A stretch of DNA of 64,000 nucleotides from an uncultured virus (IMG/VR IMGVR_UViG_2838736955_000001) (Duplodnaviria; Heunggongvirae; Uroviricota; Caudoviricetes), in the IMG/VR virus record IMGVR_UViG_2838736955_000001; one strand, given 5' to 3'. This document shows, piece by piece, positions 6,086 to 63,637 of this stretch (position 1 is its first letter; each line of letters opens with the position of its first letter). The translations under genes and the position numbers were made by a program. The notes below the pieces were generated by a model. The model saw only the letters and a program-made list of their open reading frames with translations, was not told where the DNA came from and made no database searches.

Positions 6086-6185
6086 TGTCATCTCTAAAAT
6101 TAAGATGTGCTTATCTACGATCTGAAGATCGTATATCGCCAGCCGTCGGAGGCTCTATGTTAGGTCACCTCAACGGAGCCAAACA

Positions 6186-6272: not shown

Positions 6273-6316
6273 CGCTCTATCGAAATTGCCATATTGCGGC
6301 TGTCGGTTCCGAAAGG

Positions 6317-6544: not shown

Positions 6545-6576
6545 CTCGATAGCACCGATGATGTCAGGGCGGTGGG

Positions 6577-6726: not shown

Positions 6727-6876
6727 CAGGGATCTCCTTAATACCCCATAGAGGTGTAGGCTCCGGGAGTTAACATCAAGAGCAAGATGTCAGGGTGCGG
6801 GGTGATCAGTCACTTGGTTGCAGGCGCCACAGGATTGTGCTGCTCTGATCAAGTTCATCGTTAGACAGGCGCCCAA

Positions 6877-7257: not shown

Positions 7258-7278
7258 CGAAGGATGTCAGGGCGTGGG

Positions 7279-7476
7279 TCAGCTAGATCCAGAACAACGC
7301 GTCTTCATCAGCTTATTTTTCAGGTGTCCACCGTCGCTCAAAAACTCCAGCCAATAGCTCGATGCGACCTCTGCGGCGTACTCGCCAGGATTTCGCCCGA
7401 ACGGCAGCTTTCCGCTCTGGAAGCACTTCGTGACGACCGCCTGCACGAAACGACGATGGAATTCTTCTTCTGACAT
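7279..7476 (-). CDS. Hypothetical protein
   Basis: ORF fills the space between two repeats; stop abuts the repeat. Confidence 0.5.
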   Translation of the reverse strand: MSEEEFHRRFVQAVVTKCFQSGKLPFGRNPGEYAAEVASSYWLEFLSDGGHLKNKLMKTRCSGSS

Positions 7477-7599
7477 GCCCTGGAGTATATGGCACTGCCC
7501 ATCAACAATCGAGGTCTGATGTCAGGGCGGCGGGCTGTTGCATGATTTCCTGGCACACGTATCTTGTGCACTGCGAAACCCACTAGGCAAGGATCAGCG

Positions 7600-7809
7600 A
7601 TGCGGATCGAACTTCGTAGCAAGCTCATCGACGCGGCCGAGTACGATGCCTCCCAACTGCGTCTAAAGCTTTTCCTGACCAATGGTCAAATTCGTGAATT
7701 CGTTGACGTGCCCGCGCACGAAATTGATGCTCTCGCGGCGGCACGGTCGCCCGGATCATACTATCTCAAGTCGATCAAGGATCGTTACCAGCCGTCGACT
7801 GCCGCGTAA
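7600..7809 (+). CDS. KTSC domain protein
   Basis: SKLI....YD....L.L.L.NG....F.DVP.......AARSPGSYY...IK..Y. Confidence 0.85.
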   Translation: MRIELRSKLIDAAEYDASQLRLKLFLTNGQIREFVDVPAHEIDALAAARSPGSYYLKSIKDRYQPSTAA

Positions 7810-7818
7810 TGTACCCTG

Positions 7819-8916: not shown

Positions 8917-9046
8917 TTGCGGATCTCAACTTGAGGTTATGCGCTAAAGTGCATGGTCCATCGAAATCCGCAAGTGGTACGCGCGGTAAGATCTCCGCTC
9001 ACCGACACCTGATGGCACGAGCTAGACTTACGATGCTCAAGTTCTA

Positions 9047-9283
9047 CTAGGCGGTGCCCAGTAGGTTCTCACCCGCAGCCCTGAGATCGTCCATTGAGAC
9101 GTTGACCCTTGCATCAGTTGAGCCGGGCGCAGCAACGATAGCCGGGCCTCGCATGGCCGGCTCGCCATCGACCTGAGCGAAGACGTAGAAGCACGCGTCA
9201 TCCATTCCCTGATTTTGCAACCCCGCAACGACGTGCGTATCGAAATGCTCCCGCAGATCCTTGTTTACTTTCTCGATCTTCAT
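9047..9283 (-). CDS. Hypothetical protein
   Basis: GGAGA RBS; follows the tailspike gene. Confidence 0.6.
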   Translation of the reverse strand: MKIEKVNKDLREHFDTHVVAGLQNQGMDDACFYVFAQVDGEPAMRGPAIVAAPGSTDARVNVSMDDLRAAGENLLGTA

Positions 9284-9294
9284 TTTCCCGTCTC

Positions 9295-33388: not shown

Positions 33389-34864
33389 TTACGCGACAGC
33401 CTGCGTCTTGAAGTTCCAGTCAGATGCCGGCTTGTTCACCTTGGCGTGCCGTTTCATCATGAGGGCGTATCGAGATGCTGAAATCACGTCGTCTCGCTCC
33501 TTCACGACCTTGCCGTCCTTCCGGTGATAGAGGCGGAATTCCTCGAACCATTCGCCGCAGGTGGAAAACACCTTCCAGCGCCCGGTCTGCATCCTCTGCA
33601 GCATGTCGAGTAGTCCGGCCTCAACGCCATTTGTTCCGTCTTCGAACGTTGCCCGCTCCGGCAGCATCCCGAGGCCCTGCGCCTTGTATTGCTTGGCCAG
33701 CTGCTCACCGCTGCCCTTGTCGTGCTGCAATCCATCGTGCGGCCACGACCAGGGCAACCAGCTACCCCATGGCTTAAGCGCCGCGGAATGGATGATCGGC
33801 GTGGCCTCGCGCTCGCGATAGGTCTTCGTCACATAGAAGACATCGGCGTCGCGGTCCCACGCGCACCCAGCAGCCCCGAATGGGTGATCCCAACCGAAGT
33901 CCAGCCCGCCGATCTGGACCCAATGCTTTGGGATCTCGAACGGGGCGATAGTGATGCTTTCCTCGGTAACCGGGAAAATCCGGCCCGATCCAAGCGTCGG
34001 AATGCCTTTTGCTCGTGCTTCTCGTTCATGGGCCGGGTAGCTGGCGATGATCTTCGCCCGGTCCTCGGGTGTGTAATGCTCCGCGTCGTCGATCGTCATT
34101 GACGTGACGTGACGCGACAAAGCCCCGACATCGCCAGGAGCCGGCATGATGAACCGAGCAACTACCGTCGAGATGCCGAGCAGCGGCGTGAACGTTGTCT
34201 GCGCGAACTGCCCACGCTGGCCGTTGTTGGTTCGCGTCAGGCCTTCGCTATAGATATCTTCCGGCGGCTCTTCATCGTACCAGACGCCGTCGACCGTCGG
34301 GCCCTGCCATTTCTCGCGGCCTTTCTCGTAGGCCTTAAAGGCGATGATGCTTTCCGATGCCTGGATGTCGCCGCCACCGCCCCAGCGCACCACGACGCTA
34401 TCGAGGAGGTTCGGGACGCCCATGGCGCGAGTGCGGTCAACGATGCAGTCTTGCGGGACGAAGCCGGTACCCCATTGCTCTTCAATTGCCGGCGGTCCGA
34501 TCAGGATACGCTGCGGGTTGTCGCGCGTGCTTTCGCCTGTGACCGAGCCAGCCCAAAGAAGCGGGGCCCTGTTGAACGTCGCGCCTTCCCACCAATCCGG
34601 ATACCGCCCGGTAAGGTGGATTGCCCATTCAGCGCCGCCAGCGATGGTTTTGCCCAGCTGGTTGCCTGCCATGAACAGCCGTTCGGACTTTTCCGCCCCT
34701 GCGGCGTGGAACTCCCGCTGCTTCCGATATGGCTTGTAGAACCGGAGCTTGTTAGTGCGCTGTCTGCGCTCGATCTCCGCCGTTATCTCCATCCTCTCCA
34801 TGAGCAGAGAGGAAAGGCTGGATGGTGGCGTCGAGCTTCCTGATGCGCTCGATGAGCTGTTCAT
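33389..34864 (-). CDS. terL: Terminase large subunit
   Basis: Walker A AGNQLGKT, Walker B VWYDEE, TFTP, nuclease LDFGW and DD..SA.RY. Confidence 0.95.
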   Translation of the reverse strand: MNSSSSASGSSTPPSSLSSLLMERMEITAEIERRQRTNKLRFYKPYRKQREFHAAGAEKSERLFMAGNQLGKTIAGGAEWAIHLTGRYPDWWEGATFNRAPLLWAGSVTGESTRDNPQRILIGPPAIEEQWGTGFVPQDCIVDRTRAMGVPNLLDSVVVRWGGGGDIQASESIIAFKAYEKGREKWQGPTVDGVWYDEEPPEDIYSEGLTRTNNGQRGQFAQTTFTPLLGISTVVARFIMPAPGDVGALSRHVTSMTIDDAEHYTPEDRAKIIASYPAHEREARAKGIPTLGSGRIFPVTEESITIAPFEIPKHWVQIGGLDFGWDHPFGAAGCAWDRDADVFYVTKTYREREATPIIHSAALKPWGSWLPWSWPHDGLQHDKGSGEQLAKQYKAQGLGMLPERATFEDGTNGVEAGLLDMLQRMQTGRWKVFSTCGEWFEEFRLYHRKDGKVVKERDDVISASRYALMMKRHAKVNKPASDWNFKTQAVA

Positions 34865-35267: not shown

Positions 35268-35891
35268 ATGAAAATGGGAAGCCAACTTACAGATGTTCGT
35301 CGATGCCCACATTGCGGCATTGCATCGCCGCTGCTCTATCAAGTGTGGGCCTCACAAGACAACGCGGGCACATCTCGTACAGATGGGCAAAGCCGTAAAG
35401 CTTGGGCCACTTATCTCTGCAGGACTTGCGGTGGAGCGGTCACCGCGGAGGGTCACGGGTCATATATGGGAAACGAAGCTGCCTTCATTTACCCTGACAG
35501 CAAACAAGCACACGAAGATATCCCGCCGATAGCAAGGACCTTTCTGCAGCAAGCTTACGAAACCATGCACGCGCCAGATGCTGCCGCGGTGATGGCCGGC
35601 AGTGCCGTTGACGCTATGCTCAAAGAAAAAGGGTACACGGACGGCTCCCTGTATGTGCGAATTGATGCAGCGCTAAAGGACAACCTGCTCACCCAAGGTA
35701 TGGCCGACTGGGCCCACGAAGTCCGACTTGGCTCGAATCGGCCGAGACATGCAGATGCCGAAAACCCTCACGTTTCTCACGATGAAGCGAAGCAGTCGGT
35801 TGAGTTCGCTGAAGCTCTCGGTAATTTCCTGTTTGTTCTCACCGCGAAAATCGATCGCGGTATCAAAGCAGCAAAGGCTGCCGAAACTTAA
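35268..35891 (+). CDS. DUF4145 (HEPN-like) protein with N-terminal zinc ribbon
   Basis: CPHC, CRTC, AAAVM...AVD, L..RID, VRLGSN...H. Confidence 0.8.
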   Translation: MKMGSQLTDVRRCPHCGIASPLLYQVWASQDNAGTSRTDGQSRKAWATYLCRTCGGAVTAEGHGSYMGNEAAFIYPDSKQAHEDIPPIARTFLQQAYETMHAPDAAAVMAGSAVDAMLKEKGYTDGSLYVRIDAALKDNLLTQGMADWAHEVRLGSNRPRHADAENPHVSHDEAKQSVEFAEALGNFLFVLTAKIDRGIKAAKAAET

Positions 35892-35949
35892 CTTCTCATG
35901 CCGGGAGTTTTTCTATGACTGGCATGGGTTAATCTTGGGAGATTGAAAC

Positions 35950-36240
35950 TTGAAATTCAGCGAGCATTATGTTGTTGCCCGAACAGAAATCGTCGTCGCG
36001 AACATTAACGGAGAAGATCATCATATCCGTGTCGAAGCCCTTGATGATCAAAAAGGCTCATTCTCTACTCGAGCCTACATCCTGAGGTCGGTTAAGGTTG
36101 GTTACGAGTTTCCTATCCCGTCAGATGGACTTTATGCAGACATGTGGCTCGACTTCGATCTTCCGTGGACCCATAGAGACACTGCAGAAGGAGCTATCAA
36201 GCAAGCACTGTCGTTTCTGTTTGAAAGAACAGGTTCATAA
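35950..36240 (+). CDS. Hypothetical protein (moron)
   Basis: GGGAG RBS, TTG start; AT-richer than flanks. Confidence 0.55.
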   Translation: MKFSEHYVVARTEIVVANINGEDHHIRVEALDDQKGSFSTRAYILRSVKVGYEFPIPSDGLYADMWLDFDLPWTHRDTAEGAIKQALSFLFERTGS

Positions 36241-36622: not shown

Positions 36623-36699
36623 ATAAGCCCGAGGCGTTTTCACACTTCGGGCTTATATCCAGTGCGCATTTAATTAGGCTGATTTGCGTAAAACGTCAA
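36623..36699 (-). promoter_or_regulatory. Putative late promoter plus downstream hairpin (pR'/tR'-like)
   Basis: TTGACG-N17-TAATTA on the minus strand, then an ATAAGCCCGA..TCGGGCTTAT stem. Confidence 0.5.
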
Positions 36700-37240
36700 T
36701 GCCATAGAACCGGCAGAGTACGTTTCCCACAACTCTAAGATCCGCCATCATATGCGGGTGATTTTCGTCCCGAGAAACGATGTAATTCAGAGGGGCCATG
36801 AGGTTTCCGGAATACTTGGCCTGGGCCTCTTTGATTGCCGCAGATAGGCGGTCCCACGCGACGACAGCGTTCTCGTCAGCTTCATCAGGGGCGACGTTCA
36901 TCACGCCCCCGCGCCTTGTCTTCAGACTGTCAGGCACTTGAAGCGCGAGCCGGTAGCGCTCCACAGTCATCTGATACCGGGTGAACGCATCGTACAGCTC
37001 GCCCGAAATCAAACCCAGAAGCTTCATTCTCCCGATCACCGTTCCGGCCTCAGGCTGCTTTGCATCATCCTTCTTCAGTCCGTAATGCCGCATTCTCGTC
37101 TCCCGTGCTAATCTGTCGATGGCCTCGCCCGGCACTTTGGCGCGAGATATTTGTCCACTTTCGGTCCTGACCGCGTCTTCCTTGCGTGGTCTCCCGCGCT
37201 TCCTGCTGGCTTTGCTTGCTGATCTCTTCGCCGCTTTCAT
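36674..37240 (-). CDS. Putative late-gene regulator
   Basis: Last early gene before the packaging genes; basic AT-hook-like KRGRPRK. Confidence 0.55.
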   Translation of the reverse strand: MKAAKRSASKASRKRGRPRKEDAVRTESGQISRAKVPGEAIDRLARETRMRHYGLKKDDAKQPEAGTVIGRMKLLGLISGELYDAFTRYQMTVERYRLALQVPDSLKTRRGGVMNVAPDEADENAVVAWDRLSAAIKEAQAKYSGNLMAPLNYIVSRDENHPHMMADLRVVGNVLCRFYGIDVLRKSA

Positions 37241-37273
37241 TCTCTTTCCCTCGTATTCGAGCCGCCTGCTCGG

Positions 37274-37495
37274 TTATCTGAATTTCGGATGGGTGATCGC
37301 CGCGAGGATCATCTCCATCGCGATCTCTCGGTTCGTGCGCTGGGATCTGTCGGTTTCGACATAGGCGGCAATGCCGCTCGGTATGTGCGTGACCCTGACG
37401 CCTGGATACGTCCCGACATGCTGCCCGCCGCGGCTGTGGATGCCGGGAATGGGCCAAGTCTCGATCTTGAGCTGATCCGCTGGGATATCGATCAT
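37274..37495 (-). CDS. Minimal peptide-chain-release-factor (GGQ) domain protein
   Basis: RGGQHVG....VRVTHIPSGI......RSQ..NR..A. Confidence 0.85.
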   Translation of the reverse strand: MIDIPADQLKIETWPIPGIHSRGGQHVGTYPGVRVTHIPSGIAAYVETDRSQRTNREIAMEMILAAITHPKFR

Positions 37496-37938
37496 TTCTT
37501 CACCGCCCGCCTGGCAAGCGCGAAGTCGCGACCGACCATACCGACCCCCTTCACGAAGTCCTCGGGGAACAGCCCGTTGCTGCAATGAGGGCAAGCCGGT
37601 ACCATCTTCCGATGGCGCCAAGCCTTGTCAATTTCCTTGGCTGCAATCGAGCGGCACTGGAAATGTGCCGCCTCGGTGATTTCTTTGCGCTGCCGGTTCA
37701 GCCCCTCATGGGCTGCGTGATAGTTCTCGCAAAGGTTCTTGAAGGCATCGAAGGGGTCGACATCCTTTTCGCAATCCTTGCACCAAACGCGCCTCTCTTT
37801 CGGGTCGTAGGCCATGCGTCTATGATTGCAGGATGAATACGGCCGGCGCGTCATACCGCGAGACACGCGGATATCTCCTATATCGACAACCGTCAGGCCA
37901 GAGAGGTAAGCCTGATCCTCGATTGGTTCATCGCTCAT
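37492..37938 (-). CDS. Zinc-finger protein
   Basis: CNH, CKDC, CPHC. Confidence 0.65.
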   Translation of the reverse strand: MSDEPIEDQAYLSGLTVVDIGDIRVSRGMTRRPYSSCNHRRMAYDPKERRVWCKDCEKDVDPFDAFKNLCENYHAAHEGLNRQRKEITEAAHFQCRSIAAKEIDKAWRHRKMVPACPHCSNGLFPEDFVKGVGMVGRDFALARRAVKK

Positions 37939-38901: not shown

Positions 38902-39809
38902 GCTGCGCTCCTGTCTTGCTGGAGGAATTTGCTCGGGACGTTGCAGCCGGCTTGGCCAGGCGCAGGCCCCCATTCAACGACGCTCCACTCGGTACCGGAT
39001 CGCCAAGCCGACACACGCTGACCCCAGCGGGCTTCCGTCGTTGGAACGAAGGTCTTGCCGTCAGGCGACTTCATCATCGTGCCGGCCTTGAACTCTTCGG
39101 TCGGGCGCGGGATCGACTTTCCGGCGGCGACACGGCGCTCGTAGGCTTCCTTGATCGCCGGGATGAAATAGGACCACGAGCCAGCCGGTCGCTTGATGCG
39201 AGACGCGACGGATCGGATTGTCGGGATGATGTCGGCTTCGAGGCTGATGCCTGACGCGATGAGTTCGAAGATCGGACCCACGACTAATGCGCCGTGCGGC
39301 TGAATTCCGTTCTCCCCAGCTGCTGCGATGAGCTTGCTTTGGAGGATATCGAAGTCCATCTGAGCAGGCGCGCCTAATACGCTGCTAAGCGTATTCTTAT
39401 CTGTGTCTGCTTCTGCTTCTGCTTGGTTGAACGCCCGTTGAACGTCCGTTGCATCGACCGACTGATTTTGTTGCCTTTTTGATGCGCTTGCTTTCCCTGC
39501 CTTGGAATTAATTTTCAACTTGTCCGCACGGTTTTGAATTTCATGTTCAGCTCGTGCATTTGAGAGCTTGCCGTCGACCACCGAAAACTTGCCAAGATCG
39601 ATCAATTTCGAGGCGACCTTTTCAAACGTGGCCGGCCGCATTCCACAGTAGGTGGCGAGGCGCGCGACGTGGAAATCGATAGGCCCGCTCTCTTCATAGA
39701 TGCGGCATAGGATCATCGTGTAGACACCGACCTCTTGCGCCGACAGACCGCGAACGCCGTTCATGAAGTCGGCCGGATAGAAGTCGAAATATGGGATGTG
39801 CCTGCTCAT
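38898..39809 (-). CDS. Replication initiator, YdaU/DUF1376 family
   Basis: PYFDFYPADF....GLS..E.GVY..ILC..Y. Confidence 0.85.
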   Translation of the reverse strand: MSRHIPYFDFYPADFMNGVRGLSAQEVGVYTMILCRIYEESGPIDFHVARLATYCGMRPATFEKVASKLIDLGKFSVVDGKLSNARAEHEIQNRADKLKINSKAGKASASKRQQNQSVDATDVQRAFNQAEAEADTDKNTLSSVLGAPAQMDFDILQSKLIAAAGENGIQPHGALVVGPIFELIASGISLEADIIPTIRSVASRIKRPAGSWSYFIPAIKEAYERRVAAGKSIPRPTEEFKAGTMMKSPDGKTFVPTTEARWGQRVSAWRSGTEWSVVEWGPAPGQAGCNVPSKFLQQDRSAA

Positions 39810-41239
39810 GATCTCGCTCCATTTCTCACGGCCGAGAACGCCATGTCTGCGAAGAGGTTGACCGTCTCCAGCCCGCCGTTGCGCTGCTTGGCGACGCTGA
39901 ACTCCATCACGTTCCGGCAGGCTTCCAGCCTGTCAGCGCGCTCGAATTGCTCCTCAGGCGTGCCACCCTCCCCGCGCTCCAGGTAGTAGGCATCGCGGTA
40001 GATGAAGGCGATCGTGTCGGCGTCCTGCTCGATCGCGCCGGAATCGCGGAGGTCGGAAAGCTGCGGCCGCTTGTTCTCCCGGCTCTCCACGGCGCGGTTG
40101 AGCTGCGAAAGGAGAACGACGCCGATGTCCAGATCGCGGGCCATGCCCTTGAGGCTGGACGTGATCTCGGCAATCTCATTCACGCGGTTGCCGCTATAGC
40201 GCGACGAGGCGCGGATAAGGCCAAGGTGGTCGATGAAGAGGACCGCGAGCCGGTTGCCATGCGCCTGCGTCTCTTCGACAAGACGCTCGGCCCGGGTGCG
40301 GATATCGGTCACCGTCTGGCCGGCCTGGTCGTCGATGAGGATAGGCAGCGCGTTCATGCGGGCCTGCTCCTCAGCCACCATGTCGAACTCTTCGTCTGTC
40401 ATCGTGCCGCGGATGATGCTGGTATAGGGAACGCGCTTACGCCAATCATAGAGCGCGTCAGAGATTGCGCGGCAGGCCAGCTTGTCGGCATCCATTTCCA
40501 GCGAGACGAACCCAATGCTGGATCCTGCAGCCGCCGCCTTCATGGCGACAGAAAGAGCAAAGGTTGTCTTGCCCATCGAAGGGCGCGCGCCGACCAACGT
40601 CAGGTCTTTGCGCTGGATTCCGCCGGTCAGACGGTTGAGGTCCGACAGTCCCCATGTGATGCCGGTAAGACCGGTCCCGGTATGGCGAGCCTCTGACGCG
40701 GCCTCAAACGCGCGGCCGGCGGCGCTGCCGATGCTGACACGCGTCTTTCTGGATGCCCCGGCCCGAACATCAGACATGATGTCGTCGATCGCGCTTGCCG
40801 CCTCATGAGCGATGAGCCGAACGTCAGCCTGCGGGTCATTCGCCGCCGCATAGACGCGCCCGGCTTCGTTTGCCAGATTAAGGCGTGCCCACTGGTCAAT
40901 GATTTTCTTCGCGTTCTCGACTGACGCCGACGCGCCAGCAGTGGCGGTACCGAGAAGGCGCGCAAGATACTGCATGACGTCTTCACCGGAATTCTTCTTT
41001 AGCCAGGTCTTCTCGATATCGGGAATGAGCTTGGCGACGACGACCGGATTGCCGGTGCCATATTGCTCGCGGGCCGACTTGATCGCCCGGTAAAGGTGCT
41101 GATGGAACGGGTAGACGAAATGGCGATCGGCAAGGATGGCCATAGTGTCTCGCGCATCGCCGTCAAACATCAGAGCGCCGAGCACGTTCTGCTCTACCTC
41201 GATGATATAGGCATCGGTTTTGAAGACGGGCGCGTTCAT
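39806..41239 (-). CDS. dnaB: DnaB-like replicative helicase
   Basis: GARPSMGKT, SLEM, IDHL, LSQLNR, DLRDSGAIEQDAD, AKQRNG. Confidence 0.95.
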   Translation of the reverse strand: MNAPVFKTDAYIIEVEQNVLGALMFDGDARDTMAILADRHFVYPFHQHLYRAIKSAREQYGTGNPVVVAKLIPDIEKTWLKKNSGEDVMQYLARLLGTATAGASASVENAKKIIDQWARLNLANEAGRVYAAANDPQADVRLIAHEAASAIDDIMSDVRAGASRKTRVSIGSAAGRAFEAASEARHTGTGLTGITWGLSDLNRLTGGIQRKDLTLVGARPSMGKTTFALSVAMKAAAAGSSIGFVSLEMDADKLACRAISDALYDWRKRVPYTSIIRGTMTDEEFDMVAEEQARMNALPILIDDQAGQTVTDIRTRAERLVEETQAHGNRLAVLFIDHLGLIRASSRYSGNRVNEIAEITSSLKGMARDLDIGVVLLSQLNRAVESRENKRPQLSDLRDSGAIEQDADTIAFIYRDAYYLERGEGGTPEEQFERADRLEACRNVMEFSVAKQRNGGLETVNLFADMAFSAVRNGARS

Positions 41240-41427
41240 CCTGCCACCCTGCTTCCGATAGACTGTCGCTGTTCGGGCGTCATGAATAGGTCGAGCCATC
41301 GACGCCAAGCCCTGCCGGCGGCTATGCCGTCCTCGATCGCGCCACTCGACTGGGCGCGCTGCATCGCCTCGATGTAGGTTTCCCACGCTCGTGTCTGGTG
41401 GTCATGGAGAGACACCACGTTGCTCAT
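41236..41427 (-). CDS. Hypothetical protein
   Basis: Coupled ORF. Confidence 0.55.
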   Translation of the reverse strand: MSNVVSLHDHQTRAWETYIEAMQRAQSSGAIEDGIAAGRAWRRWLDLFMTPEQRQSIGSRVAG

Positions 41428-44572: not shown

Positions 44573-44770
44573 TCATGCGGCACCTACAGCGGCTTTTGCC
44601 TCAGAAAGGGTCGAGAAATGACCGGGGAAAGCCATGTCATCGAGAATGGCGACGAAGCCCTTGCGAACAGAATAGACGGCGCCACGGCACACTTTTCCGA
44701 GAGGCCATTCAAGTTTGGCTGTCTTGTCGAGGTTGCTCTCGTGCTCACCTATAGGAATCAGGGCGCTCAT
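44573..44770 (-). CDS. Hypothetical protein
   Basis: ATGA-coupled ORF. Confidence 0.5.
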   Translation of the reverse strand: MSALIPIGEHESNLDKTAKLEWPLGKVCRGAVYSVRKGFVAILDDMAFPGHFSTLSEAKAAVGAA

Positions 44771-45945
44771 GCTGCGACGACCTCCCCGATGTCATTGAGA
44801 GCGATATGAAAAGCCGCGAAGATTTCCTCAGCGCGAGCGGGTACTTCCGCTGCCAGCGCCTTTGCGATCTTGGCTTCCTGTTGTGGGGTCCAGTCTCTGG
44901 ACGAGCGCTGCCAACGGATTACGTCGAGCAAAGCGTCGTCTCCGGCGTATTCCTCAACTGGATATTCAAGGCCGAGCGATCGAGCGATGTTGTATCGGCA
45001 GAATCCGTCGAGGATCACGTCGCCCTGTCGAATGATAGGTTCAACAATGCCGATCGGATGGTCCGCGATGTCATTCGCCAGCGCGTCGTAAGCGGTATTC
45101 GAGAGTTCAGGGAAACAATGAGCGAACTCGGACCGCCTCATCGGGAATGGAGGATCCATTTCAATAAGGATGGAGCCGGGGGTGGCCGGGGCATTACTGA
45201 CGACCCCAGCCTGATGTGTTGCGGCGTTCTCGGATGCGGTTACATAATCGCCTCCTGTGTTGGCGTCGGCGTTCCCGTCGATGCTTTGGGCTTGGGTCCG
45301 CTCCTCAGTTGGAGCGATGGGGGCGGACGACGACGGTTCAACGTCAGCGACGTTCGCCAGTCGGGCCTTGCCCTTCACTGCAGCGATTGCGTCGTCATCC
45401 GATGGGGAATTGGTTGCCGGGGTATCGACGCCCCGGCTCGTCCTACTCGCATCTCCCGTCATGCTGTCGGCGGCTTCTTCATCAGCCTGACCAGTCGCAC
45501 CGTTGTCGCCGGATGCTTTCGCTTGGAATTCTTCCGCCTCTTCCCGTTCGATCATGATATCGACGGCAGCGATCAGCGCGGCGCGACCGGTTTCGGTCTG
45601 CATGCCGGTGACGACCTGTTGGATGAGGCGTGGATTTACGTCGCGGACCTCACCGGTTTCCGCGTCAAATTCTTCAATGTTTTCTCGTGCGTGTGCATGC
45701 ACGAGGTTGATGCCGTGAACCGCGTTCCAGTAGGTCTCGAATACGAGGTCTGCCTCTTCGCGCTCGGAAGTGTCGAGCTTGCGCTGCGAGACGACCTGCT
45801 TGATCGCCTTCACGTCGAAACCGTTGGCGCGAGCTTCCTTGTAGATGTCGGACTTGTCGGCGTTGAGATCCTTGATCTCAAGCTCCAGGCGCTCGACCCG
45901 TTCGACAATGGCTTTGAGCTGATCGCGTGCGACTTCAAAGGTCAT
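44767..45945 (-). CDS. GapR (DUF2312) domain fused to a ParB/Srx-like domain
   Basis: QLKAIVERVERLE.E.......DIY.EA...GFD.K; C-terminal FPELS..YDAL..DI...G.VEPI.....ILDG..R. Confidence 0.75.
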   Translation of the reverse strand: MTFEVARDQLKAIVERVERLELEIKDLNADKSDIYKEARANGFDVKAIKQVVSQRKLDTSEREEADLVFETYWNAVHGINLVHAHARENIEEFDAETGEVRDVNPRLIQQVVTGMQTETGRAALIAAVDIMIEREEAEEFQAKASGDNGATGQADEEAADSMTGDASRTSRGVDTPATNSPSDDDAIAAVKGKARLANVADVEPSSSAPIAPTEERTQAQSIDGNADANTGGDYVTASENAATHQAGVVSNAPATPGSILIEMDPPFPMRRSEFAHCFPELSNTAYDALANDIADHPIGIVEPIIRQGDVILDGFCRYNIARSLGLEYPVEEYAGDDALLDVIRWQRSSRDWTPQQEAKIAKALAAEVPARAEEIFAAFHIALNDIGEVVAA

Positions 45946-46178
45946 GCTGCAGTCTCCATGACCGGTGCAAAATCAGTCGGTCGGATGTCGAGACCTCGCT
46001 CGCGAGCAGCTTCAAGGATGGCTGGGATATGCCAGTGGGGCACGACGCCGCCGGTCCCACCTTTCTCTTTCGGCATGCGCCAGCGCATGACCGTGTGGGC
46101 CTTGACGTTCGTGACCTCAGCCAGCGGCTTCAAGCCTTTGAACTTCTTGATGATCGTGTTGGCGGGTTCGCATCTCAT
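45942..46178 (-). CDS. Cro-like repressor
   Basis: II.KF.G...LA......TV.RW.....GG.GG.VP; divergent from cI. Confidence 0.8.
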   Translation of the reverse strand: MRCEPANTIIKKFKGLKPLAEVTNVKAHTVMRWRMPKEKGGTGGVVPHWHIPAILEAARERGLDIRPTDFAPVMETAA

Positions 46179-46185
46179 GTCGATA

Positions 46186-46272
46186 ATGTACGATATTCAT
46201 ACAGACAAAGCAACAGGAAATGTACGATTTTGCTAAATGCATCTTTCAGCGCGCCGTGCGAAAATTGTACAA
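46186..46272. promoter_or_regulatory. OR-like operators (consensus ATGTACG-N5-CGTACAT)
   Basis: Sites at 46186-46204 and 46220-46238; weaker site at 46254-46272. Confidence 0.7.
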
Positions 46273-46967
46273 TGAATGACGCACCTTCTGACATCTATCT
46301 GGACTGGATCCGGGAAGCCCTGAAACAGCCGGGCAAAACGCAGGTTGGCCTCGCAAACCACCTCGGCATCGCGCATCCGCAGATAACGCAGCTTTTGAAG
46401 GGCAAGCGGAAGCTGAAGGTGAACGAGATCCCGAAGATCGCCGCTTACCTTGAGGTCGAGCCGCCGGGCGGAGAAGTGAAGCCCTCAGAAGCGAAGTGGG
46501 TGCCGGCTCGTAAGGTGGGGACTGTTGCCGCTGGGCTGTTCCGAGAGGTCGATGAATTCGACCAGTCTGAACCGGAAGAAATTATTGTCCCTCGCGATGA
46601 GAACTTCCCGAACGCCAGGCAGCTAACCTTCGAGGTCGAAGGCGACAGCATGAATGAGTTGCGCCCTCGCCCGATCCTTCCCGGCGATACTGTCGTCTGC
46701 ACTGCCTACGAGGACATCGCGCACCGTGTCGTGCTCCGAGACGGGATGGTCGTCGTCGTTGAGCGATCACGCGACAACGGTATGATGCGTGAATGGTCGG
46801 TGAAACAGATTGAGATCTACGAGGACAGGACGGAGTTTCACCCGAGGTCAAGCAACCCGAAACACAAGCCCATCGTCGTCAACCGTCAGTTTGATGCAGA
46901 TGACGGCGTGAAAGTCGAGGTCATAGGGGTGGTGCGGATGGTGCTGAACACAATGCCGGGGTTTTGA
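46272..46967 (+). CDS. CI-like repressor (HTH plus S24 peptidase)
   Basis: KTQVGLA.HLGI...QITQLLKG; VAAG cleavage site; VEGDSM; VK. Confidence 0.9.
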   Translation: MNDAPSDIYLDWIREALKQPGKTQVGLANHLGIAHPQITQLLKGKRKLKVNEIPKIAAYLEVEPPGGEVKPSEAKWVPARKVGTVAAGLFREVDEFDQSEPEEIIVPRDENFPNARQLTFEVEGDSMNELRPRPILPGDTVVCTAYEDIAHRVVLRDGMVVVVERSRDNGMMREWSVKQIEIYEDRTEFHPRSSNPKHKPIVVNRQFDADDGVKVEVIGVVRMVLNTMPGF

Positions 46968-53871: not shown

Positions 53872-54458
53872 CACAGCAGGAAAAGACTTCTAACCCCGCG
53901 CACCAGACGCAAATGATGGGCAGCACCTGCCATCCCTATAAGAGATATGATGAGCACCCTGACGGCGGAGGAATGCGCGAAGATGAGCTTGGCGCATATG
54001 TTCGGTTCGAAGTGGTTGAACAGCTTTCGGGTCGGATCGCTAAGCTTGAGGACGACATGTGCCTAGCGTTGCTAGATGTCTTGGAAGAGCGCCACCGGCA
54101 AGTCTCGTCCGAAGGCTGGACGCCAGAGCATGATGATCAGCACGATGACTACAGCCTAGCGAAGGCAGCGAGCGTCTATGCGGCATGCGCGAGCGTTGAT
54201 CGTCCCGATCGCGCGGTTATGGATCAGTTCGGCCTTGCAGGAACACCAACAGCAATTATTCGCAATTGGCCAACGACTTGGGACACCTCTTGGCTAAAGC
54301 CGACCAATCGCCGTCGCGACCTTGTGAAGGCGGTAGCCCTTCTGATCGCAGAGATCGAGCGCCTTGACCGCATCATGTTCCGTGAAGCGGAATCCATGAG
54401 CGACAGAACTTATTGGACCGGTTCCGAAGACGAACAGGAGCCTTTAGATGTCAAGTGA
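53868..54458 (+). CDS. Conserved phage early protein (Ead/Ea22-region type)
   Basis: ER.RQ...EGWT.EHDD.H, W.KP..RRRDLVKA.AL..AEIERLDR. Confidence 0.7.
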   Translation: MTQQEKTSNPAHQTQMMGSTCHPYKRYDEHPDGGGMREDELGAYVRFEVVEQLSGRIAKLEDDMCLALLDVLEERHRQVSSEGWTPEHDDQHDDYSLAKAASVYAACASVDRPDRAVMDQFGLAGTPTAIIRNWPTTWDTSWLKPTNRRRDLVKAVALLIAEIERLDRIMFREAESMSDRTYWTGSEDEQEPLDVK

Positions 54459-54972
54459 AGCCCTTAACAGCCTGCGGGAAACCTTACGACTTTTGATGTC
54501 TCGTCATGCCGGGGGCGAAAAACGGGAAGACACCTATAAAGACGGCTTCCAGCAGGGGTTGGCGGCAGCGATTGATGAAATCGACAAAATTCCCGCTACC
54601 CAATTCGTCGCTCTAGCTACCATCCCGCCTGATTGCGCGATCGGCGAATTCTACGGCTTCACTGAAACCACGACGTTGTACCGGCTCGTGCCGGAGGGTG
54701 CTCCACCTCCCTCGTCTCTTGGCGGATCAACCACACCTCACAAATCGGAAGAACCCCAAATGGTGAAATCTCACGAAGCAATCAAGGCTGTCCGCGACGG
54801 CCACCGCATCGCCCGTTCAGGCTGGAACGGTAAGGGTATGTATGTTTACCAGCACGAACCAAACGGCTTTAAGCCGGTCCTGATCCTGCGAACTGCCAAG
54901 GGGGAATACCAGCCGGGGTGGGTTTTCTCCCAGGAGGATGTGTTCTCCGATGACTGGGAGATCGTAGAATGA
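54448..54972 (+). CDS. Protein with C-terminal DUF2829/Tad2-like domain (possible internal start at 54760)
   Basis: EAI.AV..G.RIAR.GWNGKGM...GW..SQ.D.FSDDWEIV. Confidence 0.8.
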   Translation: MSSEALNSLRETLRLLMSRHAGGEKREDTYKDGFQQGLAAAIDEIDKIPATQFVALATIPPDCAIGEFYGFTETTTLYRLVPEGAPPPSSLGGSTTPHKSEEPQMVKSHEAIKAVRDGHRIARSGWNGKGMYVYQHEPNGFKPVLILRTAKGEYQPGWVFSQEDVFSDDWEIVE

Positions 54973-56071: not shown

Positions 56072-56328
56072 TGACAAACACGGTCGACCTGAACCGCAAC
56101 GTTCCGCGCCTCGGTCTTAACCGCCTTGAGGTTGCCCAAGCCATTGGCGTCAGTGCCAACACCGTCGATGTGATGGTGGATGAGGGATTTTTGCCGAAGC
56201 CGCGAAAGTGGCACAGCCGCAAGGTCTGGCTGGTTGCCGAGATAGTCACCGCCATGGCATCTTGGCCGGAAGAAGGTATGCAAGCAGCTGGGGAGGCCGA
56301 CGGCGAAGATTGGAGCATGTCGGCGTGA
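56071..56328 (+). CDS. Excisionase/AlpA-like HTH protein
   Basis: LNR.E.A..IGVS..T...MV..G.LPKP; immediately upstream of int. Confidence 0.75.
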   Translation: MTNTVDLNRNVPRLGLNRLEVAQAIGVSANTVDVMVDEGFLPKPRKWHSRKVWLVAEIVTAMASWPEEGMQAAGEADGEDWSMSA

Positions 56329-56333
56329 ACGAC

Positions 56334-57497
56334 ATGGCCAATATCGATCTTCCTTATGTCGAGAAGAATAAAAGCCGTCACGACACGATGCGCTACTACT
56401 TGCGCATTGACGGCAAGCGCATCTGCAGGCTGCCAAACGATATCAATAGCGAGGAATTCGCGACCGCATATTGGAAGGCCAGAAAGGCAACAGAGAAGGC
56501 TGTCCAGCGCGAGGAACCCGCTCATCGCCTGATCCACTTGTCCGTAAAGCCAAACAGCTTCCAGTGGCTCTGCTTGGCCTATATGAAATCAACGTCCTTC
56601 ACCAAGCTCGACGCAACCACACAGGCCCGGCGCCGATCGATCATGGAGTCGATGTGGATCGAGCCTCTGTCGCTATCTCCAGACGAGAAGCGCGTTGTTG
56701 CCGACATACCGATCAAAGCCATTAACGTCGGTCACATAGAAGCCCTCAGGGACAGGAAGAAGGATGTTCCATTCGCCGCAGACGAGCGGCTGAAGGTATT
56801 GCGCCAAGTCTTCGATACGAAAGATCCTACGGGGAAACCCTACACCGTCAACCACGCTCGCCTCGTCAAGGCGTTCCGAGTTCAATCCGACGGACACGCT
56901 ACAGCGATGCCAGAGGATCTGGCAAAGTTCATCGAACACCACGGGGCAGAATCGAAGGCGGCGCTTTATATCTCGCTTGCGATGTACACAGGCCTTCGCG
57001 TGTCCGATTTGGCCGTCCTCGGCCCTCAGCACCGCCGCAAGGACACTTTCAAGTTCCGCCTGTTCAAAAACAGGAACCGGACGCCGGTCGACATCGAGAT
57101 CGTGCTCCATCCGATCCTCGAGGCGGTTCTGTCGATGCACAAGGTCACCGCCCTCACCTATTTGGTGACAGAGTTCGGGAAGCCGTTCAGCGTGAAGGGA
57201 TTGGGTAACCGGATCTCGGATTGGTTCAGACAGGCGGGAATGCCCCACCTGACATCGCATTCCGTCCGCAAGGGGGCAGCCACCGACGCCGCCCACAATG
57301 AGGCGACAGACAATATGCTCGAGGCGATGTTCGGCTGGAAGGATGGGAAGACGTCGAAGATCTACACCCGGCATGCCGAGCGTGCACGACTGGCAAGGCA
57401 GACGATATCGAAGATCAATTGGGATGGTGTGGGAGACAGGCTCCTGCCGGCGAATGACACCGAGGAAGGTGTGGCAGGGTGTGGCGGCGCTGATTGA
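56334..57497 (+). CDS. int: Tyrosine integrase of the prophage
   Basis: TGLR.SD, HSVRK, MFGW, IYT catalytic motifs. Confidence 0.95.
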   Translation: MANIDLPYVEKNKSRHDTMRYYLRIDGKRICRLPNDINSEEFATAYWKARKATEKAVQREEPAHRLIHLSVKPNSFQWLCLAYMKSTSFTKLDATTQARRRSIMESMWIEPLSLSPDEKRVVADIPIKAINVGHIEALRDRKKDVPFAADERLKVLRQVFDTKDPTGKPYTVNHARLVKAFRVQSDGHATAMPEDLAKFIEHHGAESKAALYISLAMYTGLRVSDLAVLGPQHRRKDTFKFRLFKNRNRTPVDIEIVLHPILEAVLSMHKVTALTYLVTEFGKPFSVKGLGNRISDWFRQAGMPHLTSHSVRKGAATDAAHNEATDNMLEAMFGWKDGKTSKIYTRHAERARLARQTISKINWDGVGDRLLPANDTEEGVAGCGGAD

Positions 57498-60004: not shown

Positions 60005-60146
60005 AATTTTTAGTAACTTTACTGCTCGATAGCGACAACCGTCGCACTCCAAAACCGTTTTCTTTCAATGGCTTACTTGACCATTCCGACCACGATGCGC
60101 ATATATAGCGCATACCCCAATAGCGGGGAAATTGTGGGGAAGATTA

Positions 60147-61370
60147 ATGGGGAGCCATACTCGTAACGTTCTTACTGTGAAGTCTATCGCTGCTAGTAAG
60201 GCCACCAAGCTGCGCGATGGCGGCGGCCTGTATCTCGTCGCCAAGGGTAACGGTCGCTATTGGATGTTCAACTACACCTTTGCCGGCCTGCGGCGCGAGA
60301 TGGGTATTGGTCCGCTCCACACAATCGGCCTCGCTGAAGCACGTGAGAAATGCGAGGACGCGCGGAAACTGATTCGCACGGGCGTTGACCCACTGGCGGC
60401 CAAACGCGAGGCAGAGGAGGCCTCACCCAGCGCGATGACGTTCGGAGCCTATGCCGACGACTTCATCGATGCGGCCGTAAAGGCTGGCCGCTGGCGCGGA
60501 GGTAAGACGGAAGCACGCTGGCGTAATCTACTCGGCAATCACGCAAAGGATATCCGCTCTAAGGCTATCGGCGGCATCCGCGTGGCGGACGTAGTGAAGG
60601 TCATCAAGCCGCTATGGGGCGAAAAACAGGAAACCGCGGAGAAGCTGCGCGAGGCGATTGAGCGTGTTCTTGACGCGGCCAAGGTCGAGGGGCATCGCTC
60701 CGGTGATAATCCGGCAGCCTGGAAAGGCAACCTCGAACATGTCCTCCACAAGCCTAACGAGCTTGTCGCACGCAACCATCACGCGGCCATGCCTCACGCC
60801 GACGTGCCCGCCTTCATGAAGAAGCTGGCCAAGGTAAGCGGCGTCAGCGCTCGCGCGCTGGAATTGACGATACTCACCGGCGTTCGCAGCGGCGAAACGC
60901 GAGGCGCGGTCTGGCCGGAATTCGATCTTGATGCGAAGGTTTGGACTATTCCAGCAATCCGCATGAAGGGCGGCAAGATACACCGCGTGCCGCTGTCGGA
61001 CGAGGCAACTGCGCTCCTGAAAAAGATGGAGGAACAGTCGGTCAACGACTACGTCTTCCCTGGTGTCCGGCACAAGAAGCCTCTGTCGGATGCCTCACTG
61101 GCGAAGGCGCTGGACACTGCGGGCGGCGGAGTGTTCACGGTCCATGGCTTCAGGTCGACTTTCCGCGACTGGGCAACCGAGGTAGCACATGCACCGCGAG
61201 AGATTGCCGAGGCCGCCCTCGCTCATGCTGTTGGCGATAAGGTCGAGCAGTCCTACGCAAGGTCGGATGCGCTGGAGCGTCGCCGTCAGTTAATGCAGCA
61301 ATGGGCAAACCACTGCATGACCGAGCCGGCAGCCATTGATGGTGAACCGCTCCACAGAAATGCGGCGTGA
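60147..61370 (+). CDS. int: P4-type tyrosine integrase with Arm-DNA-binding domain
   Basis: RDGGGLYL, REMG.G, LAEAR, TGVRSGE, RMK, HRVPL, TVHGFRSTFRDW, ALAH, Y. Confidence 0.95.
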   Translation: MGSHTRNVLTVKSIAASKATKLRDGGGLYLVAKGNGRYWMFNYTFAGLRREMGIGPLHTIGLAEAREKCEDARKLIRTGVDPLAAKREAEEASPSAMTFGAYADDFIDAAVKAGRWRGGKTEARWRNLLGNHAKDIRSKAIGGIRVADVVKVIKPLWGEKQETAEKLREAIERVLDAAKVEGHRSGDNPAAWKGNLEHVLHKPNELVARNHHAAMPHADVPAFMKKLAKVSGVSARALELTILTGVRSGETRGAVWPEFDLDAKVWTIPAIRMKGGKIHRVPLSDEATALLKKMEEQSVNDYVFPGVRHKKPLSDASLAKALDTAGGGVFTVHGFRSTFRDWATEVAHAPREIAEAALAHAVGDKVEQSYARSDALERRRQLMQQWANHCMTEPAAIDGEPLHRNAA

Positions 61371-61531
61371 CTTTTACGACCATATCGCCTATATATTGAT
61401 TGTCGCTGAGCGACCTGCAACCGGCGGGAACCCCGCCATGATCTGCTAGGCAGATCCAACCTCTAATCCGGCAATGCCGGCCTTCACCTTTTTACGTGAT
61501 TGATCTGGCCGAGTGCCGGAAGAGGAGAACT

Positions 61532-61738
61532 ATGACACCTTCAAATGACAATACCCCTGCCCTCGTCAGCTTGAACGAGGCTTGCCGCCTTACGTCCATG
61601 TCCCGCACCATGCTGAACCGCTACCGCGCCGAAGGGCGGTTTCCTGTGGCGCTCGAATTGGGCGAGCGCCGAATTGCGTTCGTTCGGTCCGAGGTCGCCG
61701 CTTGGATTCAGGCGAAGATCGACGCGCGCGCCGCCTGA
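61532..61738 (+). CDS. alpA: AlpA-family regulator/excisionase
   Basis: L.E...LTSMSR.......GRFP..LELG.RRIAF..SEV.AWI; AGGAG RBS. Confidence 0.9.
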   Translation: MTPSNDNTPALVSLNEACRLTSMSRTMLNRYRAEGRFPVALELGERRIAFVRSEVAAWIQAKIDARAA

Positions 61739-61812
61739 TCAACATCACCAACCAGTGACACAACCACCTGCCGGCCCTCGCCGGCGGGCTATCTCATCGT
61801 GGAAGGAGACCA

Positions 61813-62079
61813 ATGCAGATCACCGACTTCAAAACTATAGACGAACCGAGCGGCGGCCATAGAGCCATTGCGGTCTTTGACCTCGAGCTTACCGATGAAT
61901 GCCGCCTCTACGGCTTGCGGCTTCTCCGAATGCGCGACGGTCGCTTGCTGACATTTGCGCCGCAGTCTGGATATCGCCGTGTCGCGAGCTTCGCGACGCC
62001 ACTGGCTGAACGCATCACCCGACTTGCTCTTGACCAATATGAGGCACTGACCGCCTATGACCGCATCCGCGCAGCCTAA
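61813..62079 (+). CDS. Small beta-rich protein (SpoVG/SSB-like?)
   Basis: IA.FD.EL....RLYGL.L......L.F.P; AAGGAG RBS. Confidence 0.6.
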   Translation: MQITDFKTIDEPSGGHRAIAVFDLELTDECRLYGLRLLRMRDGRLLTFAPQSGYRRVASFATPLAERITRLALDQYEALTAYDRIRAA

Positions 62080-63637
62080 GCCAGATCCCCGCGAAGAAGC
62101 TTGGACAATCCATCGCGAACTCTGCCACATGCTCTCCGGCGACTCGGTACTCATCCCCTTCGCTGACGGCGAACCAGATTGGAGTACAACCAACCGGGAC
62201 ACAGTCGAAAAAGTCAATGATTGGGCCGACTTCGAAGAAACAGACATTCCCCGCCTAGCGATCCTGACTGATGGCTTCCAGCGATTTATTGGCAAGGGCG
62301 AGGACGTTTCCGTCGTAACGCTCTGGCGGGCTGGCACGCCTATCATTCAGCAGATTGGTGGTGAGCCCTGCATCAGGGCCGTCGACGCCATCATGGATGC
62401 CGTCATCGATGACATTCCTTTAGCTGATGTACTGCCCACTGCAGACCCACGTCATGAGATGCCCGACCTCACGCCGATGGAGCGAAAATTGTCCGAAATC
62501 GGCGATCGGCTTGCGAAACCGCCGACCGCCGCGAACGACAACAACCCCCAAAAGCAAGAGCCTGCGGTCCGCGAGATCGGTGTTGTTAATCCGGTGCACT
62601 GGCACGGCGAGGAGGTCCCAGAGCGCGAATGGTATGCAACTGACCTCATCCCGATGCGACAGGTCACGATTATCTCTGGCGATGGTGGCGTCGGCAAATC
62701 ACTCCTCGCGCTACAAATTGGTGCCGCGGGTTGCATGGGATCTGAAACGCTCGGTATGACCTTTCTTGGCGGTCGGACGCTGTATCTCGGCGCTGAGGAT
62801 GAAGCTGAAGAATTCCACCGGCGACTTCTCGATATCGTCAGCGCGCACGGAAAGACTCTCGCCGACCTTGAGGACTTCCGGCTCGTGCCTTTGGCCGGGA
62901 TGGATGCCCTACTAGCCATTCCAGACAACAAAGGGGTGATGCAACCGACCCCGCTTTGGAAGTCGGTCGAAGAATATGCCGAAGGTTTCAAGCCTAAGCT
63001 AGTCGTGCTCGACACCGTGGCCGACCTCTTCGGCGGCGATGAGATCAAGCGCGGCCAGGCGCGCCAGTTCATCTCGATGCTTCGGCATCTAGCCATCAAG
63101 ATCGACTGCGCCGTTGTCCTTCTTGCTCACCCATCTGTGCAAGGTATGCAGACTGGCACCGGATCCTCAGGCTCGACCGGATGGAGCAACAGTTCGCGTA
63201 GTCGCCTCTACATGACGAGGCCTGACGATAAGGGAGCTGACGCGGACCTGCGCGTGCTGAGGACGATGAAAATCAACTACGGCAAGGTCGGCGGCGAGAT
63301 CACCATCCGATGGAAAGATGGATCATTCGAGCTCGACGACGGCAAGCCGGCCGCCGGATCTATGATGCTGGCGGCACGCGCCGAGGCCATCTTCCGTGAC
63401 CTTCTATCAATGTTCAATCGGCAGGGTCGCAGCGTATGTCACGTACCAGGGACAACGTATGCTCCGGCTATGATGGCGAAGATGCCTGAAGCTGAGGGCG
63501 TCCCGAAGGCTAGGTTCGTCGACGCGATGAATGCCTTGCTGCGGTCAGGTGATATAAAGATCGTGGTGGAAGGCCCACCATCGAGGCCTCGGCAGCGGCT
63601 GATTTTGGCGTCGGAAGACTTCGGCGGAGGCAATTAA
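62057..63637 (+). CDS. AAA_25/RepA-family helicase (satellite replicase)
   Basis: Walker A GDGGVGKS, AED, Walker B VVLDT, LAHP, SGSTGW.N..RSR, K.NY. Confidence 0.9.
   Translation: MTASAQPKPDPREEAWTIHRELCHMLSGDSVLIPFADGEPDWSTTNRDTVEKVNDWADFEETDIPRLAILTDGFQRFIGKGEDVSVVTLWRAGTPIIQQIGGEPCIRAVDAIMDAVIDDIPLADVLPTADPRHEMPDLTPMERKLSEIGDRLAKPPTAANDNNPQKQEPAVREIGVVNPVHWHGEEVPEREWYATDLIPMRQVTIISGDGGVGKSLLALQIGAAGCMGSETLGMTFLGGRTLYLGAEDEAEEFHRRLLDIVSAHGKTLADLEDFRLVPLAGMDALLAIPDNKGVMQPTPLWKSVEEYAEGFKPKLVVLDTVADLFGGDEIKRGQARQFISMLRHLAIKIDCAVVLLAHPSVQGMQTGTGSSGSTGWSNSSRSRLYMTRPDDKGADADLRVLRTMKINYGKVGGEITIRWKDGSFELDDGKPAAGSMMLAARAEAIFRDLLSMFNRQGRSVCHVPGTTYAPAMMAKMPEAEGVPKARFVDAMNALLRSGDIKIVVEGPPSRPRQRLILASEDFGGGN

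Follow-up and report, generated by a model that had tools for sequence, protein, structure and literature searches.

A stand-alone 73-residue GGQ release-factor domain encoded by a temperate phage, and its relatives

Introduction

What can a phage do with the catalytic domain of a release factor when that domain stands alone, with neither a domain that reads stop codons nor a tail that anchors it in the ribosome? The question is raised by a 73-codon open reading frame in the window analysed here, which comprises bases 1-64000 of a virus record of 77,193 bases. The product is referred to below as the mini factor.

The bacterial release-factor hydrolases surveyed by Burroughs and Aravind are RF1/RF2, ArfB and PrfH, and the word 'phage' is absent from the available text of that survey (PMC6514570), whose supplementary data may list phage GGQ-only proteins. 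Elsewhere, the RF-1 annotation of a protein of phage PHB09 occupies one table row in PMC8622976. The available passages of other papers mention an RF-1-domain gene within mycobacterial tRNA arrays (PMC5966550) and release factors in huge phages (PMC7162821), or take recoded phages as their topic (preprint 10.1101/2021.08.26.457843); a review of jumbo phages covers, in the part available, Pth but not the GGQ-only phage family (PMC7824862). The literature searched, in which few subscription journals were covered, contained no functional work on phage GGQ-only proteins. The family is already labelled in databases by automatic annotation and the gene in the window is one more member, so that the surprise is limited.

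Identity and architecture of the mini factor

The gene and the elements of its product to which the text refers are as follows.

37274..37495, minus strand: GGQ mini factor gene, a 73-aa stand-alone release-factor domain-3 reading frame, ATG to TAA (translation)
37421..37429, minus strand: GGQ codons, residues 23-25, followed by the family-typical HVG (HVN in cellular factors)
37331..37348, minus strand: RSQxxN motif, residues 50-55, at the helix start, common to RF1/RF2 (alignment to RF2 chains)
37277..37303, minus strand: family-specific C-terminal cap AAITHPKFR, with A66, I67, T68, H69 and P70 invariant in 37 rows

A sequence-only reading of this DNA had described a stand-alone GGQ domain of 73 amino acids that lacks both the codon-recognition domains and the long basic tail of ArfB, and this description holds. 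All the motifs are present as stated: GGQHV at residues 23-27, VRVTHIPSGI at 33-42 and RSQ..NR..A at 50-59. The Pfam RF-1 profile (PF00472) is matched above its cut-off (41.7 bits against 35, E 1.2e-10) over profile positions 5-70 of 116, and no other Pfam domain is found. The NCBIfam models of complete factors are matched over the domain-3 stretch only and far below their cut-offs (prfA/prfB, 41-44 bits against 370-423; prfH, TIGR03072, 38.1 bits against 166.65), while phrog_20323 is matched with E 1.7e-8 over 4-57 of its 73 positions. The best sequence matches among solved structures are RF2 chains (E 3.5e-9). No codon-reading domain (PCRF, PxT or SPF motif) was found in the 73 residues, compared with about 360 in RF1/RF2. 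The protein ends at HPKFR, 50 residues past the first Gly of GGQ, with a net charge of +1; the tails of ArfB, which it lacks, are 37-38 residues long with a charge of +10 to +13 in all five ArfB proteins compared. The AAITHPKFR cap takes the place of the switch loop that follows in RF1/RF2 and of the linker and basic tail that follow in ArfB.

The start codon overlaps the stop codon of the upstream frame (ATGA). Across 17 loci the median dN/dS is 0.16, with a maximum of 0.44 (119 of 136 pairs; the other 17 are saturated), and against the nearest relative it is 0.013; the gene is therefore under purifying selection. Because of the ATGA overlap, the 36 close relatives and the low dN/dS, the mini gene is real, intact and conserved, and more than a chance reading frame or a remnant.

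The prophage and its host

The landmarks of the element that carries the gene are listed below.

2327-2980: endolysin gene, the left bound of a temperate phage of about 57 kb
33389..34864, minus strand: terminase large subunit gene (PF03237, PF17289), downstream of the mini gene, the start of the late (head) genes
39806..41386, minus strand: DnaB-like helicase gene (PF03796, E 3e-76), in the replication part of the leftward early operon
45927..46967, plus strand: CI-like repressor gene (HTH and peptidase S24) at the divergence point, which marks a temperate phage
56208..57497, plus strand: integrase gene (PF00589, E 4e-13; phrog_216, phrog_1), the right end of the prophage

The terminase gene is followed by genes for portal and major capsid proteins of the SU10 type, and genes for RecT and NinB are also present. 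The element is a complete-looking temperate phage of about 57 kb, and calling it a small prophage, as had been done, was wrong. The stretch is present in full in three DNA data sets of 7 million letters and next to absent from another with the same species label, a pattern that fits a prophage in an isolate. The data sets listed as containing the stretch include no RNA set, which carries no information about expression. As the named close relatives belong to Rhizobium, Brucella/Ochrobactrum and other Alphaproteobacteria, the host is probably rhizobial. Self-comparison of the record revealed no attachment-site repeats, a scan for promoters and terminators gave no excess over shuffled sequences, and the record contains no tRNA or tmRNA.

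Several other features of the window may be recorded here. The C-terminal part of a 174-aa protein (54448-54972, plus strand) is a Tad2-like domain (Thoeris anti-defence 2; E 9e-20), and a 392-aa protein with an N-terminal GapR-like DNA-binding domain (44767-45945, minus strand) adjoins a cro-like gene. Between the lysis and tail genes lies cargo of lower GC content (3130-10839). It contains an acyltransferase-3 gene (7819-8916) and a YrbL-like gene (4830-5549), and a GDSL hydrolase is weakly matched at 9295-10839. After the prophage, a second, satellite-like element (60132-63637, plus strand) has an integrase gene and an AAA_25 primase/helicase-type gene, with further genes at 64001-77193 of the record, beyond the window.

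Gene neighbourhood

The mini gene is the last gene of the leftward early operon, and its immediate surroundings are these.

37492..37938, minus strand: upstream gene for a 148-aa protein (phrog_8538), whose stop codon overlaps the mini-gene start (ATGA)
37248..37272, minus strand: short hairpin (CGAGC/GCTCG arms) and GAGGG ribosome-binding site, between the mini gene and the next gene
36674..37240, minus strand: downstream gene for a 188-aa protein (phrog_15385, function unknown), with no Pfam or NCBIfam match and with unnamed Atlas neighbours

The mini gene has no fixed partner. A phrog_8538 gene adjoins it in 2 of 36 groups, and a census of 67 loci, based on script-made gene calls in which a few target boundaries are mis-called, shows no conserved partner: the commonest neighbour family occurs within three genes in 7 of the 36 groups. 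Outside the rhizobial phages the neighbours are unrelated. Related loci contain tRNAs in 8 of 32 and in 2 of 18 cases, counts that stand without a control; most have one CAT-anticodon tRNA downstream of the regulator slot. In one related locus a NusG-like gene is followed by a tRNA (L010:6078-6151) to which ARAGORN assigns a CUA (amber) anticodon.

The 188-aa protein is likely a late-gene regulator, a label that is positional because the protein has no named family. In related phages the slot is taken by NusG-like antiterminators (above the Pfam cut-off in 5 of 5 tested; phrog_25909), by phrog_21451 proteins or by DUF6362 proteins. The earlier placing of the mini gene just before a late regulator is thus right as to position; the identity of the regulator follows from position alone, and a functional link between the two genes does not hold, the slot being interchangeable. 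At least four non-homologous families fill it (NusG-like, phrog_21451, phrog_15385 and DUF6362; loci L001, L004, L007 and L033, and the window), and the phrog_21451, phrog_15385 and DUF6362 proteins are candidate new late activators or antiterminators. In the window, two opposite-strand genes (35268-36240, plus strand), one for a 207-aa DUF4145 protein and one for a 96-aa orphan, are inserted in moron-like fashion between the putative regulator gene and the terminase gene.

The hairpin follows the mini-gene stop codon in 13 of the 22 loci folded. Viral contigs contain 52 exact matches to the element. The mini gene lies immediately upstream of 10 of them; another 13, with a different gene upstream, are followed by downstream genes of the same kinds; the remaining 29 look unrelated or are cut off. 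The downstream kind was judged by eye and near-duplicates were kept. The 13 loci without an upstream mini gene indicate that the hairpin belongs to the downstream gene, and leader-peptide control through it is rejected. The mini gene is present in 10 of 23 comparable loci, so that it is an optional occupant of the slot. The hairpin and GAGGG sequence, standing before unrelated putative late regulators of rhizobial phages, could mark a module boundary or act as a translational control element.

Distribution and conservation of the family

A single-sequence search returned 36 close relatives, 34 of them 69-75 aa long, for which the NCBI name is 'peptide chain release factor-like protein'. Two wider searches gave totals that include pieces of cellular factors: 832 matches in a library at 50% identity, of which 150 were examined, and 1699 matches of 32-212 aa in a profile search, of which 120 were examined. 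Sorting 286 proteins by motif gave 56 of cellular type and 230 of family type, and after removal of three longer than 250 aa the family comprised 227 rows with a median length of 73 aa.

The sequence-only reading had named loss of GGQ among homologues as an observation that would speak against it; the motif is kept in 37 of 37 rows for the mini factor and its close relatives and in 209 of the 227 wider rows. After thinning to below 60% identity it remains in 71 of 88 rows, and GG in 75. The second Gly (222/227) is at least as conserved as the Gln (216/227), which is replaced by Met in five rows, Leu in two, Pro in one and Lys in one, two rows being unaligned there. The His of THxP is kept in 224 of 227 rows, RSQ in 183, SQ in 208 and the Asn of RSQxxN in 208. 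Basic residues shared with RF1/RF2 are likewise kept (R/K at position 34 in 84%, R50 in 88%, R/K at 56 in 95%), and a C-terminal THP or TSP cap is found in 167 of 227 rows.

Around the catalytic loop the family differs from the cellular factors. The Arg before the loop is present in 88 of 92 cellular rows and 16 of 227 family rows, 175 of which have Pro there; the Gly two residues before GGQ is present in 92 of 92 and 17 of 227 rows, respectively. Three residues after the Gln, 211 of 227 family rows have Gly where cellular factors have Asn, the cellular count being circular because Asn formed part of the sorting rule. The loop spacing varies, mostly between 7 and 11 residues, compared with 8 in all 86 cellular rows. 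The family helix is more hydrophobic (median 0.76 against -0.42 to -0.78), and an ArfB-like tail is absent, 180 of 214 rows ending no more than 55 residues from the GG motif. In the rhizobial subgroup the loop ahead of GGQ is longer, and the gene keeps a fixed position next to the late regulator, on its upstream side.

The phage context is known for rows with loci only, namely 30 viral, 8 genome and 28 metagenome loci. The nearest Atlas clusters (61-72 aa) are 59-82% viral among members that have a record, and predicted viral structures include many relatives of 64-136 aa from phages of Pseudomonas, Acinetobacter and other hosts. The family is thus a clade of proteins of about 70 aa that are viral where the context is known. 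Among longer forms, the best 120 of 3022 matches are cellular-type factors bearing PCRF, save one protein of 198 aa. A plasmid search gave no match at E 1e-10, and a broader locus search with one distant family member found nothing. Scoring of 400 genomes from the family to which the nearest named genome belongs gave one close match, in that genome itself (147 bits); the others reached at most 61 bits, those listed lying in frames of about 270-357 codons, in a tally that scored up to 14 candidates per genome, left out one genome (G296) and counted another (G083) as one row.

Fold, phylogeny and variant relatives

An AlphaFold2 model built from an alignment of 86 rows has a mean pLDDT of 90.2, and of 96 for residues 61-70. 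It consists of strands at residues 9-14, 32-37 and 42-46 and a helix at 52-67, with GGQ in the loop between the first two strands. The second and third strands are linked by a short turn, with no inserted helix of the ArfB type. With this model, Foldseek ranks RF2 and RF1 chains on ribosomes first (RF2 best, TMq 0.68; 0.65-0.69 for most of the chains heading the list) and gives a weak match to 2rsm (E 0.0088). As modelled, the mini protein folds like domain 3 of release factors.

Phylogenetic analysis was performed with a quick maximum-likelihood tree (90 rows, 74 columns), in which 49 family rows, thinned at about 52% identity, form one group with an SH-aLRT of 99, a result to which long branches could contribute. 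This clade lies apart from RF1, RF2 and ArfB, and the five ArfB rows have their own branch (100). The branch lengths indicate that the family evolves faster than the cellular factors. The best-scoring cellular factor is alphaproteobacterial RF2, with about 45-53% identity over the domain. Sequence comparison thus suggests descent from a cellular class-I factor, RF2 being nearest by score, while the trees do not settle between RF1 and RF2.

Some relatives depart from GGQ.

L031:2494-2970: gp177 of phage PHB09 (Otagovirus), with GGM and an L7/L12 C-terminal-like domain (29.3 bits against a cut-off of 25.9)
L091:1501-1893: gp006 of phiPsa374 (Otagovirus), with GGM and an L7/L12-like stretch recognised by eye
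L201:2001-2366 and L202:1501-1995: domain-3 homologues with SAW for GGQ, in Pseudomonas and Xanthomonas phages of 42-43 kb

The Otagovirus relatives carry GGM in place of GGQ, and forms with Met at the Gln position are spread over two or more supported groups that lie apart in the tree. The SAW proteins, one of them from a Septimatrevirus, share an extra C-terminal part, form long branches outside the mini clade and apparently represent a separate capture.

Comparison with known factors

The mini factor shares with domain 3 of RF1/RF2 its fold, GGQ, THxPxG and RSQxxN. It differs in lacking domains 1, 2 and 4, and hence stop-codon reading and the switch loop, and in the family-wide rebuilding of the loop flanks and the more hydrophobic helix capped by THPxF. 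ArfB (YaeJ) and ICT1 (mL62) are, like it, stand-alone GGQ domains with no decoding domain, whereas the mini factor has no linker, basic tail or inserted helix and stands on a separate branch of the tree; the helix inserted between strands of the ArfB GGQ domain is described in PMC3950681. mtRF-R (C12orf65) is also a GGQ domain without a PCRF domain, and the weak Foldseek match 2rsm belongs with it. It has a basic C-terminal helix. It acts on split large subunits together with its partner MTRES1 (PMC8012679, passages available), whereas neither a partner nor a basic helix was found for the phage protein.

PrfH (RFH), proposed in the available text of PMC6514570 to counter ribotoxin damage together with RtcB, is a GGQ factor of about 200 aa with a codon-recognition-like domain and coupling to RtcB, and the mini factor scores far below the TIGR03072 cut-off. 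No RtcB gene was found among the neighbours in the window by Pfam and PHROG matches, nor does any partner family exceed 7 of 36 groups. The phage families annotated as 'RF-1 domain peptide chain release factor', phrog_20323 (73 positions), phrog_35727 and phrog_3122, have the same architecture or fall in the same clade; they are exemplified by PHB09 gp177 and by a 76-aa protein of Acinetobacter phage Henu6. The Otagovirus forms differ from the rhizobial mini factor in their GGM and L12-like extension. The mini factor belongs to the RF-1 domain superfamily and to a phage family of the phrog_20323 type, and falls outside RF1/RF2, ArfB and PrfH.

Possible action on the ribosome

We give a probability of about 0.45 to the reading that the mini factor is a codon-blind peptidyl-tRNA hydrolase that acts on stalled 70S ribosomes or split 50S subunits during lytic growth. 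Its gene would be expressed together with the replication genes, early in lytic growth. The protein would enter the cleft of the empty A site on the large subunit of the host ribosome, docking on 23S rRNA with no anchor in the 30S subunit, for which the rebuilt loop and the THPxF cap are candidate docking parts. There its GGQ would free unfinished proteins from the stalled 70S or split 50S without codon reading. An obstructed 50S is the favoured guess for the substrate because no 30S contact would be needed there, and in mtRF-R a GGQ factor is already known to work on large subunits that have been split off (PMC8012679, available part).

Judged from conserved residues, the ribosome would be the best-supported site of action. 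The elements kept in the family (GGQ, RSQxxN and the basic residues) are those that face the peptidyl-transferase centre. In release factors RSQ lines the A2602 pocket. Available accounts state that release is catalysed by the backbone amide at the Gln position (PMC6742477) and that methylation of this Gln helps through hydrophobic packing (PMC8904536). Met at this position should therefore be tolerable in a ribosomal role, and less so in a substrate for methylation, and it may be a built-in mimic of methyl-Gln. The fusion of one family branch to an L7/L12 C-terminal-like domain is weak evidence for a ribosomal role, since phage L12 domains are described as promiscuous, mobile inserts (PMC6375957, in part).

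The main objection to the hydrolase reading comes from ArfB. In the part of PMC3950681 available, Escherichia coli ArfB lacking residues 101-140, which is the GGQ domain alone, had no detectable activity, did not bind ribosomes and was found 100% in the soluble fraction, and deletion of two residues of the linker also abolished activity; the failure of tail-less ArfB is restated in a passage of PMC7427801. This evidence is direct and is the strongest on the contrary side, and a docking mode foreign to ArfB would be needed. The net charge of only +1 and the missing tail, the replacement in the family of residues fixed around the cellular catalytic loop, the variable spacing and the want of a conserved helper gene also count against hydrolysis. 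All five host-type genomes examined encode RF1, RF2 and ArfB, which argues against a simple duplication of non-stop rescue, and the replacement of GGQ by SAW on a kept scaffold implies that domain 3 can serve non-catalytic ends.

In its fullest form the hydrolase reading is tentative, and the odds are against it: the mini factor would be an autonomous phage hydrolase of 70 residues that needs no stop codon, tail or 30S contact, the smallest class-I-type factor, clearing obstructed proteobacterial 50S subunits, and some lineages would have hard-coded methyl-Gln as Met, independently of PrmC.

Alternative explanations

The protein may instead act as a plug, bound to the 50S subunit at the peptidyl-transferase centre or the mouth of the tunnel but catalysing nothing useful; it would then damp host translation, block host release or rescue factors or shield idle subunits. 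The Pro and Gly of the rebuilt GGQ loop should disfavour the short catalytic helix, and the RF2 loop is able to form a hairpin that plugs the tunnel (PMC6742477, available text). In lytic phages the relatives stand close to the end of the genome, in a set of small genes (gp006 of phiPsa374), and GGQ-less domain-3 proteins exist in other phages, but these are the long branches outside the mini clade. The gene, however, sits where the phage itself needs translation, just ahead of the late switch; Gln is retained more strongly than a plug should need; and the objection from tail-less ArfB, which concerns ribosome binding, holds here as well. This explanation is unlikely on balance.

More doubtful is an anti-defence function, in which the protein would act either as a decoy that draws off a host toxin, sensor or antimicrobial able to recognise domain 3, or as a rescue factor against one ribotoxin defence. 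Such a role would suit an accessory, patchy gene in a variable early slot (10/23 comparable loci) that evolves faster than the cellular factors by branch length, that has a close match in only the seed genome among the 400 scored in its family, and that shares its phage with a gene for a Tad2-like domain. Yet the search for linked genes of defence, RNA repair or tRNA arrays found none, and no defence is known to target a GGQ domain. In particular, the link to ribotoxin defences put forward by the sequence-only reading is unsupported: the record has no tRNA or tmRNA, and no partner is conserved (maximum 7 of 36 groups).

Competition for the methyltransferase PrmC (HemK) is improbable to a still greater degree. 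As a decoy or competitive substrate, the mini factor would lower the methylation of RF1/RF2 and so slow or loosen host termination. It is a small, near-neutral protein that retains GGQHV and RSQ; HEMK1 is reported to methylate the PCRF-less GGQ proteins MRPL58 and MTRFR (PMC8904536, in part), and methylation to alter the speed and accuracy of termination (PMC8131318, in part). The likely host family has the enzyme too, PrmC_N being present in all 41 of the 41 genomes sampled. PrmC, however, meets RF1 in a compact form according to the available text of PMC8131318. It contacts domains 2 and 4 of RF1, which the mini factor lacks, and the gain for the phage is not evident. The decoy idea, raised when the gene was first read, is further weakened by relatives with Met or Leu in place of Gln (7 of 227 rows; Otagovirus proteins), which cannot be methylated and might still bind.

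Action in cis is very improbable. The mini gene could encode a leader peptide for the downstream regulator, as the conserved hairpin after its stop codon might suggest, but 13 loci have the hairpin and the same downstream genes without it, and its neighbours are unrelated outside the rhizobial phages. It could also gain an ArfB-like tail by read-through of TAA, the downstream gene of the window being in frame 11 codons past the stop and basic at its start; in-frame continuation is found in 7 of 40 loci, roughly the chance expectation for loci whose downstream gene lies close by, and the idea is rejected. Finally, a decaying, functionless fragment of a captured prfA or prfB gene is scarcely credible even though the homologous ArfB domain is inert alone, being already refuted by the selection data (dN/dS 0.013-0.44), the tight length (median 73 aa), a conserved C-terminal motif of the family's own, one clade of 49 diverse rows and a confident fold.

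Implications

The bacterial GGQ-type factors that have been studied depend on an anchor outside the catalytic domain, and the GGQ domain of ArfB alone is inert. A selected and widespread family that consists of this domain only must have either found a new solution to docking or turned the GGQ tip into a mimic directed against some host protein. Cultured phages carry relatives of the 73-residue protein, and each option is readily testable. New docking, if true, would reveal what makes the peptidyl-transferase centre competent for hydrolysis and would make the mini factor a candidate for release from split 50S subunits.
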